Shown here: one piece after another, positions 4,647 to 35,757 of the stretch
Position numbering within the stretch: position 1 is the stretch's first letter
Layout of the letters: each line of letters begins with the position of its first letter
DNA from: an uncultured Acidobacteriota bacterium
GTDB lineage: Bacteria > Acidobacteriota > Vicinamibacteria > Fen-336
DNA length: 64,000 nt
Direction: 5' to 3'
NCBI GenBank assembly: GCA_963818355.1
Contig: CAWFSB010000059.1
Coordinates: forward strand, 137,238 to 201,237
Translations under genes and position numbers: made by a program
Notes under the pieces: model-generated
What the model saw: only the letters and a program-made list of their open reading frames with translations
What the model was told of the DNA's origin: nothing
Databases searched by the model: none

Positions 4647-4675
4647 AGTATATTGAGGGGCTTCGGCTCCGTCAA
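4647..4675 (-). promoter_or_regulatory. Sigma70-type promoter candidate for rpmB
   Basis: Minus strand: TTGACG (4675-4670), 17-nt spacer, TATACT (4652-4647). About 45-nt leader ending in GGGAGGA before the ATG. Confidence 0.6.
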
Positions 4676-4734
4676 GCGCGGTGGCCGGGCTGTCGGGCGG
4701 CGGGGCCGCGTGCTATAGTCCCCGCGCCCGAGTC

Positions 4735-6427
4735 ATGGTCCAGTTCAACTTCAGCGAGAGGACCATCAAAGCCAAGGTGGTCTATTACGGACCGCCGCAG
4801 TCCGGCAAGACCACCAACCTCGAGCAGATCCACCGCATCAGCGACCCCGAGGGGTCGAACCGGCTGATCTCGCTCAACACGGCGCAGGACCGGACGCTCT
4901 TCTTCGACCTGCTGCCCTTCAGCCTCGGCACCGTCTCCGGCTACGACTTCAAGATCCAGCTCTACACCGTGCCGGGCCAGGTCCAGTACAACGCCACCCG
5001 GCGGGTGGTGCTGGCCGGTGCGGACGCGGTCGTCTTCGTCGCGGACGGCCAGAAGTCGATGGCGCGCGAGAACCTGACCGCCTTCGAGAACATGAAGGTC
5101 AACCTCCTGGCCAACCGCCTGGTGCCGGAGAAGGTCCCGCTCGTCCTGCAGTACAACAAGCAGGACCTCGACGGCCTCCTCCCGCGGGCCGAGCTCGACC
5201 AGACGCTGAACTTCTGGGGCCGGAAGGCCTTCCCCGCGGTGGCCGCGCGCGGCGAGGGTGTCATGGAGACGTTCATGGCGGTGGTGCAGGACATGCTCGG
5301 CGCCATCGCGCTCAAGTACAACCTGAAGGAGAAGGGGCTCGACCCGGAGGCCGTCCCGGAGATCGTCGCCCAGGCCTTCGCCGCGATCGTCCGGAGATCG
5401 CCCTCGTCCGCTCCGCCCTCGCCCCCACCCCCGCGCGTCGTGATCGCCCAGCCCGAGGGGACGGAGCCGGCCTACCCGGGCCAGGTCGGTGCGGAGGTCA
5501 GCCCCGTCTCCGAGGAGCTGCTCCATCGGGCGATCCGCTCGAACGTCGAGCTCGCGGAGGCGCTCAGCCAGGTCGTCCGGGACCTCAGCCAGGGCGTCGC
5601 CACCATCCATGCGCAGGCCGACCAGCTGACGCTCGCCCGCGAGGACGGCTCGCGCGGCACGGCGATCGCCGCCATCCAGCGCGAGGTCCGCCGCCTTCAG
5701 CTCGTGCTGCGCGAGGTCGGCCAGGCCGCGTCCGCCGGCCGCGCCGCCCTTCCCGGTCGCGCCCCCGCGCCTCCGCAGGTTCCGCCGACGCCGCCCCGCG
5801 GCACCACCGCGGCCCCCGCACCGCTCCCTCGACCCGCCGCCGCCTTCCCGCCGCCGGCCGCGTCCGCCCTGCCCGCCCCGCCCCGGCTCACGCCCCCGCC
5901 CCTCCCGGTTCCGGTCCGCCCCCCGGCGGCGCCGAGTGCGCCCCCGGCCCCGAGTGCGCCCCGGCGGCGCCCCGGCGGCTGCGGCGAGCCTCGACCGCCT
6001 GGTGGCCGAGGTGCTGGCGGGGGTCAGCGTCGCGCTGGCCGCCCGCCGGGTCAGCGTGGAGAACCGCATCGTCAGCGGGGCCCCCCTGCCGCGCTGCTCG
6101 CCCGCCGGCCTTCGCCGTGCGGTCGGCTCGCTGGTGCAGGGGCTGGCGGGGGCGGTGACGCCGGCCACCGCCATCCTCGTCCGCGCGGAGAAGAAGCCCG
6201 TCCTCCTGCGCGGCCGCGACGGCAGCGAGGTGAAGCGGGACTTCCTGATGATCGCGCTCACCCACGCGTCCGGGCTCGCCGAGGCGGACCAGCAGCGCGT
6301 CCTCAAGGGAGGCGACACCGGGGCACTCGGCGAGTCGCACCGCCTCGTCCGCGAGATGGGCGGCTTCATGCGCTTCGCGCCCCTGCCAGGCGGCGCGCTC
6401 GAGACCCGCGTCTTCCTGCCCGCCTGA
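4735..6427 (+). CDS. MglA-family small GTPase fused to helical segment, Pro/Ala-rich linker and degenerate HATPase_c-like domain (frame change near 5930-5975)
   Basis: The N-terminal ~195 aa align motif-for-motif with MglA as I recall it: GPPQSGKTT, DRTLFFD, YTVPGQ, NKQD. No stop follows the GTPase domain. The C-terminal part is read from ORF 5936..6427 (…FLMIALTHASGL…GALGESHRLVREMGGFMRFAPLPGGALETRVFLPA). Confidence 0.7.
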
Positions 6428-6428
6428 G

Positions 6429-6465
6429 CCCCGCGCGCGCGCCAGCCCGGACGCGCGCGCGAGGG
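6429..6465. terminator. GC-rich (CG)n hairpin between convergent genes, possible bidirectional terminator
   Basis: cccgcgcgcgcg-ccagcccgga-cgcgcgcgcgaggg inverted repeat. There is no U-tract, so function is uncertain. Confidence 0.3.
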
Positions 6466-6505
6466 ACCTCGAAGGCCCCGGTGAAGGCCGTCCCGGCCGC
6501 CTCTC

Positions 6506-7287
6506 CTACACTCCCGCTCCAGCAGCTCCCGCAGCGCGAAGGCGTCCGCGACGACGTGGTCGGGCCGGTGAGCGAACCGCTCGAGGTCCCTCTCGCGCGA
6601 GACGCCGGTCAGGACCAGGACCGTCGTCATCCCGCTCTGCACCCCGGCGATGATGTCCGTCTCCATGTTGTCCCCGACCATGCAGGCCTCCGCCGAGTGG
6701 GCCGCCATGTGCCGCAGCCCCGCCCGCATCATGAAGGCCGAGGGCTTGCCCACGTAGAAGGGCGACTTGCCGGTGATCCGCTCGATCGGGGCGGCGAAAG
6801 CGCCGCAGCTCGGCCGCCCGAACGGGCCGGCCACGTCGGGGTTGGTGGCGACGAAGCGCGCGCCCTTCTGGATGAGCGCGGAGGCGCGCTGGATCATCTC
6901 GAAGTTGTAGTGGCGCGTCTCCCCGAGCACCACGAAGTCGGCCTCCGTCTCCGAGATCGTGAAGCCGATCTTGTAGAGCTCGTGCACGAGCGCGCCCTCG
7001 CCGACCACGAAGGCCCGCCGGCGCGTACCCGCCTGCTTGTCGAGGAACTCCGCGGTGGCCATGGCCGAGGTGAAGAAGTGACTCGGCGGCACCGTGATCC
7101 CCGACCCCGCCATGCGGCCCGCGAGGTCGGCCGGAGTCTGGGAGGGGTAGTTCGTGAGGAACAGGAAGCGCTGCCCCGACGAGAGGAGCCACGACACGAG
7201 CTCCGCCGCCCCCGGCAGCGGCTCGTCGTCCTTCAGGATGACTCCGTCGATGTCGATCAGGAAGGCGCTGGGCGCCACCTCGCTCAC
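6506..7287 (-). CDS. HAD-superfamily subfamily IIA hydrolase (NagD-like sugar phosphatase); 3' end uncertain
   Basis: GTG at 7287. FLIDIDGVI…, …VGDNMETDIIAGVQSGMTTVLVLTGV… The domain ends near 6510, but the frame has no stop until 4672. A TAG at 6506 sits in the adjacent frame. Confidence 0.7.
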
Positions 7288-8705
7288 AGGACCTCCGGGC
7301 CCGCCCCGCCCGTCTCTCCCGCCGCGAGCTCGAACGACTCGCCGTGCGCGGGGACCCGCGCCTCGAACCCGCGCTCCCGCGTGATGCGCGAGGCCAGAGC
7401 CTCCGCCGACTCCGGCTCGCCGTGGGTCACGAAGACGGTCCGGGGCGCGCGCCGCACGCCGGAGAGCCAGCGCATCATCTCTCCCGCGTCAGCATGCCCG
7501 GAGAGGCCCTTGAGGTCCCGGATCTCGGCCAGGACCGGCACCTCGCCCTTGTGGATCCGGACCGTGCTCGCGCCGTCGAGGAGGGCCCGGCCGAGCGTCC
7601 CCACCGCCTGGTAGCCGGTGATCAACAGCGTGTTCTCGGGGTGGGGGAGCCGCTGCCGGCAGTGGTGCAGGATGCGGCCCCCGGACAGCATGCCGCTCGA
7701 GGAGAGGATGACGGCCGGGCCCCTCATCTTGTTGAGGGCCTCCGACTCCGCGCGCGTGCGGTGGAACTGCACCCACTTGCCGTGGAGGAGGCTGCGGCCC
7801 CCGATGCTGTTGAGGCCCACCTTCGATCCCTCGGGGTGAGCGGCGTAGATGCGGGTGGCGTCGATCGCCATCGGGCTGTCCACGTGGATCGGGAAGGGTC
7901 GCATCCGGCCCGCGGTCACGAGCTCGTCCATCAGGAAGATCATCTGCTGGGCGCGGCCCACGGCGAAGGCGGGGATGAGGAGAACCCCTCCCCGGGCGAA
8001 GGTCTTCTTGAGAACACCCTCCAGCTGGTCGAGCACGGACAGCGCGGGGTGCGTCCGGTTGCCGTAGGTGCTCTCGACGACCAGGTAATCGGCGTCGGGC
8101 GCCGGCTCGGGGTCCTTCGTCAGCACGGCGTCGAAGCGGCCCACGTCGCCGCTGAAGAGGACACGCGTCTCGCGGCCGTCCTCGCGCACCGTGACTTCCG
8201 CGGAGGCGGCGCCGAGGAGGTGCCCGGCGTCCCGGTAGGTGAACGAGAACGCGTGGTTCACCTCCTGGGGCCGGCCGAGGGGCAGGGGCCGGAGAAGCGC
8301 GAGCGCCTCCCGCACGTCCGTCTCGTCGAAGAGCGGCAGCGCGGGGCTGTGCTTCGTGAGGCCCTTGCGGTTGAGGTACTCGGCGTCTTCCTGCTGCAGG
8401 TGGGCCGCGTCGAGCAGCAGGATCTCCGCCAGCTCCTGCGTGGGAGGCGTGCAGTAGATCGGCCCCCGGAAGCCCTGCTTGACCAGGCGCGGCACGCGGC
8501 CGATGTGGTCGAGGTGGGTGTGGGTGAGGACCATCGCGTCCACCCGGGCCGGGTCGAACTCCGGGTCCGCCCAGTTCCGGAGCCGCAGGGCCTTCTCGCC
8601 CTGGAACATCCCGGAGTCCAGGAGGATCCGCCGGCCGCCGCCCTCGAGGAGGTACTGCGACCCGGTCACCGTCTGCGCCGCGCCGAGGAAGGTCAGTCTT
8701 GCCAT
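7284..8705 (-). CDS. MBL-fold metallo-hydrolase with beta-CASP / RNA-specificity domain
   Basis: Intact 473-aa ORF with THTHLDHIG metal motif and beta-CASP region. Its stop overlaps the HAD GTG start (GTGA at 7284-7287). Confidence 0.85.
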
Positions 8706-8784
8706 GGCGGAAGCATACCAGCCGCGGCCGCGCCGACCCCGGGGGGGGCGAGCCGGGCGCGAAGGCGGGCGGCAACGCCGGCGG

Positions 8785-11481
<2,697 letters not shown>

Positions 11482-11485
<4 letters not shown>

Positions 11486-12096
11486 GGCTTTCCTCTCTGC
11501 TGGGCGACTCCAGAGCTTATACCAGCGCGCCTTTCGCCCGAGACGGCGGGGCTGTCGGGATCGTAGAAGCGGAGCCGACGCTCCGCGGCGTGGCGGATGC
11601 CGACCCGGCGCGACACCGCGACGCGGCGCGGCGGGCGACCCTCTCGCAGCGTGAGCGGGGCGCTCCGCTCGAAGAGGTGCCGACCCGAGAGCCGCGTGTC
11701 GATCCCGAGCGCGCGGCAGAGCCTTCCGGGGCCGCGGCAGGCGTCCTCGGGCAGGCCGCTGCCCGGGAGGGGCTCCGCGGCGCGGACGAGGACGCAGCCG
11801 GCGACCCCGGGGCCGTCCACCGCCAGGTTCAGGCAGTGGTGCATCCCGTAGACGAAGTAGACGTAGAGGGTGCCCGGCGGCCCGAAGAGCGGCGCCGTGC
11901 GCGGCGTCGGGCCGCGGAAGACGTGGGCCGCGGGATCGGCCGCCCCGAGGTAGGCCTCAACCTCGACGATGCGCACCGCCCGCGTGCGCCCACGCACGCG
12001 GCGCACGAGAACGCAGCCGATCAGGCCGCGTGCGGCTTGTGCGGCCGGCCGTGAGAGCAGGGCCCGGAGCCGGGCCCTCGGGCGCGGGGAGGGCAC
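11482..12096 (-). CDS. mpg: DNA-3-methyladenine glycosylase (Mpg/AAG family)
   Basis: [17 protein letters not shown]…[17 protein letters not shown]. The stop overlaps the acnA ATG (ATGA at 11482-11485). Confidence 0.8.
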
Positions 12097-34734: not shown

Positions 34735-35757
34735 CACGCGAGGCCCGGCGGACCGCGCCATCCGCCATTCGACTCCGAAGAGGAGCAGACCGAGGCCGAA
34801 CGCCACCCACGCCCACGCGCGGCGCCTGGGTGCGCCACCAGAGGACCGCCGCCGCGGTCAGGGCGACAGAGCCCAACCCGATCGCCGCCGTGACCTTCGC
34901 GTGGCCCCAGCGCTGGGCCAGCTTCTGGTAGAGGTGCTCGCGGTGCGCCTCGTAGAGGCGCTCACCGCGCAGGGCGCGGCCGACGAGCGTCCACGTCGGC
35001 GTCGGCCAGGAACAGCCACAGGCTCACGGCCACGAAGACCGCGGCCTGCGACCGCAGCTGCGGCGGAGCCAGGAGCGGGAGCGCCGCGAGCGTGTATCCC
35101 AGGAAGTAGCTGCCGATGTCGCCCAGGAAGACGCTCGCCGGCGACCAGTTGAACGGCAGGAAACCGGCTGCGGCTCCGACGAGCGCCGCCGCCAACAGGG
35201 CGGCGAACGGGTCCCAGCCCGCGAGGAGGACACCCGCCCCGGTCACGACGGCCTGCAGCGGCCGCCAGCCCGTCGATCCCGTCGAGGAAGTTGTAGAAGT
35301 TCATCACCGCCACGATCCAGAGGATCGTGGCGGCGGCGGCCAGCGGGCCCAGGTGGTGCTCCAGCAGCGCCGGCACCGGCACGCGCTCGAATCCTCCCAC
35401 TCGCAGCACGACCAGGCCCACCACACCGAGCTGAGCGACGAGGCGGGTGAAGGCCGACAGGCTGGCACGATCGTCGGCGAGCCCGATGAGCGCCAGGACG
35501 ACGCCCCCCAGCAGGATCGGGACTGCGCCCCGGTGGTCGGCCCAGACCGACCCCGAGAGCCAGAGCGCGACGAGCACCGCCAGCGCGATCGCCGTCCCCC
35601 CGCCTCGGGGGACGACCGTCCCGTGCGAGGAGCGCAGGTTGGGGCGATCCAGCAGGCCGACCTTCCGGGCGAGGTCGCGAAACACCGGCGTGAGCACGAG
35701 TGCCAGGACGAAGGCCAGGGCCGCCGCGAGAGCCGTGGGAAACCAGGAGGCGTTCAT
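34731..35757 (-). CDS. Polyprenyl-phosphate HexNAc-1-phosphate transferase (MraY/WecA/WbpL family) (about 3 frame breaks; 3' end inferred)
   Basis: [10 protein letters not shown]…[20 protein letters not shown]…IGLADD…[15 protein letters not shown]. It continues in ORF 34962..35246(-) (…[12 protein letters not shown]…). Confidence 0.7.

Follow-up and report, generated by a model that had tools for sequence, protein, structure and literature searches.

We characterized a gene on the plus strand of a 64-kb stretch of DNA (64,000 nucleotides of contig CAWFSB010000059.1 from an uncultured bacterium of the acidobacterial class Vicinamibacteria, 71% G+C, referred to here as the window) that runs from an ATG at position 4735 to a TGA at 6425 to 6427 and is predicted to encode one cytoplasmic protein of ∼563 amino acids (aa), in which a GTPase is fused to a C-terminal module. 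The explanation that best accounts for our results as a whole, to which we assign a probability of roughly 0.6, is that this is a single fused gene joining an MglA-type switch to a degenerate histidine kinase core, that it represents a reduced form found in Vicinamibacteria, and that its output is exerted through protein interaction. An initial annotation, made from the letters of the window, had already described an MglA-type GTPase that continues across a +1 frame change into a histidine kinase-like C terminus; its coordinates, GTPase motifs, and frame change all proved correct on translation of the open reading frames (ORFs) and in a plot of third-position G+C content (GC3).

A single fused gene

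The frame that begins at ATG 4735, with a translation starting MVQFNFSERTIKAKVVYYGPPQSGKTT, is open to 7614, its later part lying antisense to a HAD hydrolase gene. In the GC3 plot this frame is strongly coding (0.9 to 1.0) from 4735 to ∼5790, the signal is ambiguous across the Pro-rich zone 3' of ∼5790, and the +1 frame is coding with equal strength from ∼5980 to 6427; skipping one base near 5961 yields a continuous ORF of 563 aa. Gene boundaries were not taken from the GC3-based gene caller, which gave a miscalled long antisense ORF at 4672 to 7287.

A homolog search with the joined product recovered thousands of relatives, and the ORF counts given here refer to the best 120. Among these closest homologs, 117 of 120 are uninterrupted single ORFs of 465 to 596 aa that retain the conserved C-terminal tail RLVREMGGFxRFAPLPGGxLETRxFLP, and the P-loop is also present in 116 of those 117, the exception (P0035) being an N-terminally truncated fragment on a JGI contig that is 96% identical and intact across the linker. 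An intact 550-aa ortholog occupies the equivalent syntenic position. We consider the fusion real because nearly all of the closest homologs are intact single ORFs with the C-terminal domain, almost all of them with the P-loop as well. The initial annotation had allowed for a stop codon after the GTPase or the linker, which would have made two genes of the locus, and had suggested looking for the same fusion in related genomes; the fusion is present and intact in those genomes, and the GTPase is covalently continued rather than encoded as a separate gene.

An MglA-type GTPase domain

Residues 1 to 195 (4735 to 5319, plus strand) were assigned to the MglA family from a phmmer search against the PDB, a Pfam Arf match just above the cutoff, and near-invariance of the G domain across 53 family members. 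Residues 4 to 188 align without gaps to MglA of Myxococcus xanthus (E = 9.6e-48) and, likewise ungapped over the same residues, to MglA of Thermus thermophilus (E = 2e-43), and the next best PDB matches after MglA are Arl proteins at an E value of ∼2e-4. Residue numbering is identical to that of MglA throughout, with the P-loop GPPQSGKT at residues 19 to 26 (4789 to 4812), DRTLFFD with Arg53 at residues 52 to 58 (4888 to 4908), YTVPGQ with Thr78 and Gln82 at residues 77 to 82 (4963 to 4980), and NKQD at residues 141 to 144 (5155 to 5166), all on the plus strand. The DRTLFFD string, which holds the switch I Arg53 (the intrinsic arginine finger of Group 1), is identical to that of M. xanthus MglA and invariant in the family, and YTVPGQ, a TxxGQ version of the G3 motif in which Thr stands for the Ras-type Asp and the catalytic Gln is kept, is invariant in 53 of 53 family members. 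When Q82 is mutated, MglA neither hydrolyzes GTP nor responds to its GTPase-activating protein (GAP) (PMC2907295). At position 21, the equivalent of Ras G12, the window protein has Pro, many relatives have Ala, and MglA has Gly. A G21V substitution locks MglA in its GTP form.

These features identify the N-terminal domain as an MglA-family GTPase that keeps all of its catalytic residues, so that the proposal of an MglA-type N-terminal ∼195 aa is upheld, with every motif on which it was based present. The full-length protein falls outside the description of the MglA family as single-domain proteins of ∼195 aa, having ∼563 aa with DHp-like and CA-like domains.

A degenerate CA domain at the C terminus

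The remainder of the protein ends in a domain encoded, together with the stop codon, at 5969 to 6427 (plus strand) that sequence profiles did not recognize. Pfam returned no match to the C-terminal domain at E values of ≤10 (PF02518/HATPase_c included), whether in the window sequence or in the 36 homologs scanned, NCBIfam had no match to the window C-terminal domain, and none appeared when all PDB sequences were searched with a profile at E values of ≤10. With the sequence hidden Markov models (HMMs) negative, membership in the GHKL group therefore had to be judged from a fold search and from profile-profile comparison with sister proteins. An AlphaFold2 model of the domain, built from an alignment of 36 sequences, reached a mean local confidence (pLDDT) of 93.6 and a predicted TM score (pTM) of 0.87, and its secondary-structure elements follow one another as in a histidine kinase CA domain, with a Bergerat alpha/beta sandwich. 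Foldseek recovered 280 PDB matches at E values of ≤1e-3 with this model (best E value, ∼3e-8); the best 50 of the 280 were all histidine kinase or related chains with TM scores of 0.57 to 0.72, and the matches include RetS, plant phytochrome A, ZraS, DivL, LvrB, NtrB, HK853, and VanS. Comparison by hhalign of the C-terminal profile with the CA domains of 12 longer acidobacterial relatives (the long forms described below) gave a probability of 97.3% and an E value of 2.3e-11 over 137 columns.

Together, the model and the profile comparison indicate that this is a genuine CA domain, albeit a degenerate one. The Mg-coordinating Asn of the N-box aligns to an invariant Gly58 (LVQGL) within the equivalent string SLVQGLAGAV (6128 to 6157), and the adenine-binding Asp-x-Gly of G1 aligns to the invariant Thr98-His-Ala100 (THAxGL; THASGL in the window, 6260 to 6277), with Thr98 in place of the Asp. 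The ATP lid (6278 to 6325) has 16 residues and is shorter by ∼10, and G2 (6326 to 6367) is reduced to xLGE; all of these elements lie on the plus strand. On these substitutions, the domain is predicted not to bind Mg-ATP in the canonical way. Conservation is nevertheless high: 32 of the 152 columns of the C-terminal alignment are invariant, which indicates strong purifying selection. Searching the C-terminal profile against 1.84 billion representatives recovered 55 clusters, all of which consist of this fusion or its fragments; the domain was found in no other architecture among these clusters, and no ordinary histidine kinase was among them.

The initial annotation had called the C terminus degenerate and HATPase_c-like, a description borne out by the Foldseek matches (E value, ∼3e-8; TM scores of 0.65 to 0.72) and by the hhalign probability of 97.3%; a similarity to GHKL ATPases, the absence of which it had named as counting against its proposal, is detected in both fold and profile. 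The HMM or HHpred search that it suggested gave a divided answer, positive in the profile-profile comparison and negative in Pfam, NCBIfam, and PDB-profile searches, and the lid about which it asked is short, at 16 residues.

Signaling helix, hairpin, and tether

A full-length AlphaFold2 model was made on P0002, a homolog 83% identical to the window protein, and shows a G domain (residues 10 to 194), a helix (204 to 223), a disordered spacer, a helical hairpin (255 to 298 and 302 to 325), a disordered stretch (329 to 405), and the CA domain; the pTM of the full-length model is 0.46, and its inter-domain arrangement is unusable. In the window, the GTPase is followed by a conserved helical extension, NLKEKGLDPEAVPEIVAQAFAAIVRR (5320 to 5397, plus strand), that corresponds to helices 197 to 200 and 204 to 223 of the model (pLDDT 84 to 89) and to conserved columns in the family alignment. 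Next come a short disordered Pro-rich spacer and a conserved motif, RVVIAQPEGTEPAYPGQVG (5434 to 5490), which together occupy 5398 to 5505 (plus strand); pLDDT is <50 at 229 to 254 of P0002, and the motif is near-invariant in the alignment.

The following segment, VSEELLHRAIRSNVELAEAL (5506 to 5565, plus strand), aligns to eLLe.Av.aNme.a of the long forms and is conserved. It bears on the string SEELLHRAIRSNVELAEAL, which the initial annotation had taken as H-box-like and which forms the start of the first hairpin helix, with the consensus ELLE.A[VI][KR][SA]N. In the long forms this motif stands upstream of the GAF or PAS sensor, and its His is not conserved (Glu or Ala instead). Comparison with the long forms thus rules the string out as an H-box, and we assign it to a conserved post-GTPase signaling helix, with the DHp equivalent lying ∼20 residues further downstream.

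That equivalent is the hairpin encoded at 5566 to 5724 (plus strand), which stands between the input domain and the CA domain and has pLDDT values of 74 to 91 in the P0002 model. It comprises the H-box equivalent SQVVRDLSQGV (5566 to 5598, plus strand), with Arg282 at the phospho-acceptor position, and a second DHp-like helix, RGTAIAAIQREVRRLQLVLREVGQ (5653 to 5724, plus strand). Pfam HisKA has no match in the window protein. An HMM trained on long-form HisKA regions matches the hairpin of six Vicinamibacteria proteins at residues ∼280 to 337, weakly (12 to 23 bits), and hhalign aligns the hairpin with the long-form DHp at 67% probability (E value, 5e-5), placing vvRDl against lSHEl, that is, Arg against His; the reciprocal HMM gave weak matches, most of the best ones inside the long-form DHp. 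At the H-box position the window protein has Arg282 (QVVRDL), and at least 90% of its clade likewise has Arg; of the Vicinamibacteria proteins matched by the DHp HMM, L002 and L012 have His there and the others have Gln, Lys, or Arg. The assignment of the hairpin as a degenerate DHp is, on these comparisons and the model, moderately supported.

Between hairpin and CA domain lies a disordered Pro/Ala-rich tether (5725 to 5968, plus strand) with pLDDT values of <50 at 329 to 405 of P0002. An earlier estimate of ∼130 aa for this linker has to be shortened, as the main linker has ∼80 aa (residues ∼331 to 410). Its length is variable among homologs outside a conserved linear motif, GRAPAPPQVPPTPPRGT (5755 to 5805, plus strand; RAPxPPQxPPxPPRG), in which conservation reaches at least 90% at R340, A341, P342, P344, P345, P351, and R353; such a motif within a hypervariable tether may be a docking site.

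Long-form relatives and phylogenetic distribution

A distribution scan of one genome per GTDB species placed the full-length reduced form (∼500 to 600 aa) almost only in metagenome-assembled genomes (MAGs) labelled Vicinamibacteria or unclassified Acidobacteriota; one reduced-form contig (L015) was binned as Hyphomicrobium. The order relA-ridA-rpmB(-)-fusion is conserved across Vicinamibacteria. Other acidobacterial classes, namely, Holophagae (including the cultured Holophaga foetida and Geothrix spp.), Thermoanaerobaculia, and Polarisedimenticolia, encode the same GTPase and helix in proteins of 630 to 806 aa, the long forms. Pfam searches of eight long forms found PAS or GAF domains, HATPase_c in most, HisKA above the cutoff in three of the eight, and a receiver domain (REC) in those of Holophagae; for example, H. 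foetida DSM 6591 (L037, WP_005035797.1) and Geothrix oryzisoli (L066, WP_243302545.1) have the order MglA-PAS-HATPase_c-REC in 787 to 797 aa. Full-length profiles of the reduced and long forms are collinear, with a probability of 100%. Current names expose gaps in annotation: the Holophagae long forms are listed in RefSeq as "response regulator," which does not reflect the N-terminal GTPase, and the short form appears at JGI as "SRP receptor beta."

The phospho-acceptor appears to have been lost repeatedly in this MglA-histidine kinase family. In a DHp alignment of L019-L054, 10 of 23 strongly matched long forms lack the H-box His and have SLD/SLE, TQE, SSE, SEQ, SEE, AGR, or AND in place of SHE/AHE, and at least one of these His-less proteins (L024) still has a strong Pfam HATPase_c match. 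The architecture had been thought unusual; the comparison instead identifies the window protein, by its sequence relationships, as the sensor-less pseudokinase derivative in Vicinamibacteria of a broad acidobacterial MglA-histidine kinase family.

Beyond the Acidobacteriota, the nearest MglA-like genes have products of 258 to 338 aa and come from Thermodesulfovibrionales (L042), Nitrospinota (L048), and Vecturithrix (L076). The C-terminal extensions of L042 and L048 have no Pfam match, and no MglB match was found within 10 kb of any of the three genes.

Proposed mechanism and alternatives

We propose that the GTPase would serve as the input switch and that its nucleotide state would pass via the signaling helix into a dimeric DHp-like bundle. 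The pseudokinase module would give its output in nucleotide-dependent interactions with other proteins, much as DivL and RetS act, and with no phosphotransfer. We favor an interaction output because the kinase core is predicted to be unable to bind Mg-ATP normally or to be phosphorylated on His, and because the core, which has neither sensor, phospho-acceptor, nor ATP-site residues, is yet under strong purifying selection, as seen in its invariant columns, in the conserved tether motif, and in the near-invariant G domain. As the surroundings contain no gene for an MglB-type GAP, hydrolysis of GTP would be intrinsic, assisted intramolecularly, or served by a factor encoded elsewhere. MglB is coupled within a few genes in 390 of 449 MglA-family members and is therefore typical, not obligatory (PMC4316618). 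A phmmer search with M. xanthus MglB (the query being 100% identical to PDB 6H5B chain B) of six-frame ORFs from the window and 83 related loci found no match at E values of ≤1 and, with filters off, noise alone at E values of ≤20. Roadblock/LC7 was also absent from Pfam matches in 20 small coding segments of the window and from the precomputed Pfam families within 10 kb on either side of the gene in the syntenic locus L001, so that the absence of an adjacent MglB, noted in the initial annotation, extends to all of the loci searched.

Several points weigh against this interpretation. The predicted loss of ATP binding comes from one kind of evidence, the motif substitutions, and the DHp assignment from low scores (12 to 23 bits; 67% in hhalign). 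The passage of a signal from the GTPase to the pseudokinase is deduced from the architecture of relatives, the inter-domain geometry having a pTM of 0.46. Pro21 may alter the kinetics of the GTPase, and a gene for MglB could lie beyond the 64 kb of the window. A true frameshift that makes the gene a pseudogene in this organism, which is discussed below, is compatible with the one assembly.

The direction of control could also be the reverse of that proposed, with the pseudo-histidine kinase module regulating the GTPase as an intramolecular GAP, guanine nucleotide exchange factor (GEF), or guanine nucleotide dissociation inhibitor (GDI) in place of the missing MglB or RomRX, while the GTPase signals to external effectors as free MglA does. 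MglB is nearby in none of the 83 loci, the surface of the GTPase is near-invariant, and a long flexible tether would let the CA domain dock back on the G domain, as this alternative would have it; in conservons, moreover, the histidine kinase-like protein and the Roadblock protein act upstream of the MglA-family GTPase (PMC4316618, PMC13343842). Ordinary sensor kinases, however, take their input at the N terminus and give their output through the transmitter core, and no confident inter-domain contact is predicted in the full-length model (pTM 0.46). We consider a regulator module a serious alternative, although a rather unlikely one.

A bolder extension of the interaction reading is more doubtful still. 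According to it, MglA-histidine kinase fusions would be an unrecognized, phylum-wide class of Acidobacteriota proteins in which the GTP state gates a two-component transmitter, a counterpart of ROCO proteins and LRRK2, and the Vicinamibacteria form would be a GTPase-driven pseudokinase scaffold, possibly reading GTP or (p)ppGpp, with neither phosphotransfer nor an MglB-type GAP. Sensing of GTP or (p)ppGpp is raised as a possibility by the conserved position of the gene immediately downstream of relA-ridA; the adjacency of relA is not evidence of function.

The frameshift itself could be real, leaving either a pseudogene or a GTPase with a nonsense tail and at best a C-terminal fragment translated separately from GTG 5936. 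The shift is present in the window sequence as given, and the two closest relatives (P0042 and P0046, 96 to 99% identical) are both frameshifted in the same linker, at different places. The site (5945 to 5975, plus strand), where the GC3 signal switches frame, is a hypervariable, GC-rich imperfect repeat, with CCGAGTGCGCCCC at both 5934 and 5952, that could be prone to slippage. In DNA alignments the window has 13 additional nucleotides at 5945 to 5975 relative to L082, which is intact and 96% identical, and a close relative (L083) has two additional nucleotides relative to L082 at the matching spot; the stretch of variable length is bounded by GCGCCGAG and GCGGCGAGCCTCGAC. Against a real frameshift, the breaks in the three assemblies differ in both position and length (+13, +2, and one downstream of AAAASLDRLVAEVLAG), a JGI contig of 96% identity has no break, and the C-terminal frame has the full GC3 coding bias and every residue that is invariant in the family.

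Housekeeping genes are affected as well. The aconitase gene of the window (8693 to 11497, minus strand) is split in two frames with a break near 9471 to 9482, its N-terminal part ending in SLTDIVG, and is a single gene in the syntenic loci L001 (900 aa) and L083 (899 aa), which suggests indel errors in the window assembly. Two adjacent minus-strand segments in different frames, 34989 to 35258 and 35266 to 35730, both match Pfam Glycos_transf_4 (profile positions 111 to 157 and 4 to 90) and are probably another frameshifted gene. In L083, the neighbors of the fusion gene are shortened (a beta-CASP gene of 195 aa compared with 470 aa in the window and a HAD gene call of 230 aa compared with 264 aa in L001), and in L017, a Vicinamibacteria MAG with a 5.1-Mb contig, the copy of the fusion gene is reduced to a 175-aa ORF. 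Truncated or frameshifted copies in long-contig assemblies point to systematic indel errors at high G+C. The frame break in the window is most probably such a sequencing or assembly indel in a GC-rich linker of variable length, because the linker is hypervariable and GC-rich, aconitase is also broken, and the nearest relatives are broken at other positions. A real frameshift is improbable on this evidence, and the locus illustrates a wider caution, namely, that indel-rich assemblies split genuine fusion genes.

Less probable still is an atypical but active kinase, in which the C-terminal domain would still bind nucleotide or phosphorylate by means of noncanonical residues. Its Bergerat fold is intact (pLDDT 93.6), remnants of G1 and G2 are retained (xGL and LGE), the domain is very strongly conserved, and the deep-branching Vicinamibacteria L002 and L012 still have the H-box His. 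Opposed to this are the invariant Gly and Thr that replace the N-box Asn and the G1 Asp, the lid shorter by ∼10 residues, the Arg at the H-box position in at least 90% of the clade, and the silence of the HATPase_c HMM even at E values of ≤10. Furthermore, RetS, plant phytochrome A, and DivL, which are noncanonical or inactive kinases, are three of the best structural neighbors.

Two independent genes or a programmed +1 ribosomal frameshift, to which the two frames of the raw sequence and the possible start of a second ORF at GTG 5936 might point, are effectively refuted, given that the first frame has no stop for a further 1.6 kb, that the gene is one in-frame ORF in 117 of 120 homologs, and that the site of the shift shows no conservation, varying even between near-identical contigs.

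Genomic context

The fusion gene is surrounded by relA, ridA, rpmB, a HAD hydrolase gene, a beta-CASP gene, and the aconitase gene. It shares a divergent intergenic region with rpmB, which has a sigma-70-like promoter on the minus strand at 4647 to 4675 (TTGACG, a 17-nucleotide spacer, and TATACT; 10 of 12 matches). A scan for promoters and terminators yielded nothing convincing for the fusion gene, the rpmB site being its sole yield; a TATAGT box lies at ∼4714 to 4719 on the plus strand, ∼15 nucleotides before the ATG of the fusion gene. Further along the window, at ∼17000 to 61000, are many genes for glycosyltransferases, methyltransferases (FkbM and types 11, 12, and 23), GDSL lipases, and PMT_2 proteins, mostly on the minus strand, and this run looks like a cluster for exopolysaccharide or another cell envelope glycan. 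It includes several partial-domain matches that may reflect segment boundaries or more frameshifts.

Comparison with known systems

Bacterial signaling through small Ras-like GTPases is generally considered apart from that through two-component systems. In the Acidobacteriota, a soil phylum that is dominant yet little studied, the two are joined in one polypeptide, and Vicinamibacteria appear to have reduced the kinase to a conserved pseudokinase. We found no description of MglA-histidine kinase fusions in the literature searched, coverage of which was incomplete, or in NCBIfam. These proteins would offer a natural single-chain system for a G-domain switch that controls, or is controlled by, a histidine kinase core, and the cultured carriers of long forms (H. 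foetida and Geothrix) are suitable for experiments.

The window G domain resembles MglA of M. xanthus and T. thermophilus (Group 1, PMC4316618) in its gap-free alignment, shared numbering, Arg53, Thr78-x-x-Gly-Gln82, NKxD, and P-loop. Unlike MglA, the window protein has a C-terminal extension of ∼370 aa and Pro21, and it is not coupled to MglB in the loci searched. With the long forms it shares the MglA-type N terminus, the motif of the post-GTPase helix, and a homologous CA domain. In contrast to them, it has no PAS or GAF sensor and no receiver, it has lost the H-box His along with the N-box Asn and the G1 Asp, its DHp-like and CA domains are separated by a long Pro-rich tether, and its gene has a conserved synteny of its own.

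Regarding the fate of the kinase core, the nearest parallels are DivL of Caulobacter and RetS of Pseudomonas, both of which rank high among the structural matches to the window C-terminal domain. In both, a DHp-CA core has been repurposed for protein-protein signaling with loss of the phospho-acceptor or of kinase activity (for DivL, PMC4211667). They differ in having PAS or periplasmic sensors and no GTPase, in a CA domain that Pfam recognizes, and in the absence of a disordered tether between DHp and CA.

Regarding the joining of G domain and kinase, the comparison is with ROCO proteins. These combine Roc and COR, with a kinase in LRRK2, and so carry a Ras-like G domain and a kinase or kinase-like domain in one polypeptide, where the G domain has an intramolecular regulatory role. 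The window protein departs from them in having no COR match and a Pfam Roc score of 13.6 bits against a cutoff of 27; its G domain is MglA-type, and its kinase part is of the GHKL/histidine kinase type, not a eukaryotic-like protein kinase.

To our knowledge, the conservon of Actinomycetota is the only well-known bacterial link between small Ras-like GTPases and two-component systems. Actinobacterial conservons/AGPS consist of the histidine kinase-like CvnA, the Roadblock protein CvnB, CvnC, and the MglA-family GTPase CvnD (PMC4316618, PMC13343842). Like the window protein, they combine an MglA-family GTPase with a histidine kinase-type module and have no dedicated response regulator (PMC4316618, PMC13343842). 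Their components are separate proteins that include Roadblock and CvnC, CvnA is a catalytically active membrane protein, and CvnD falls in Group 2, which has no intrinsic Arg finger, whereas the window GTPase has Arg53. In the window protein, the parts are fused and soluble, no Roadblock was found, the kinase core is degenerate, and the cvnA-D gene set by which conservons are defined is not present. The principle of cooperation between GTPase and kinase is thus already known from conservons; what is noteworthy here is the covalent coupling of a GTPase to a histidine kinase across a phylum, together with its pseudokinase derivative in Vicinamibacteria.

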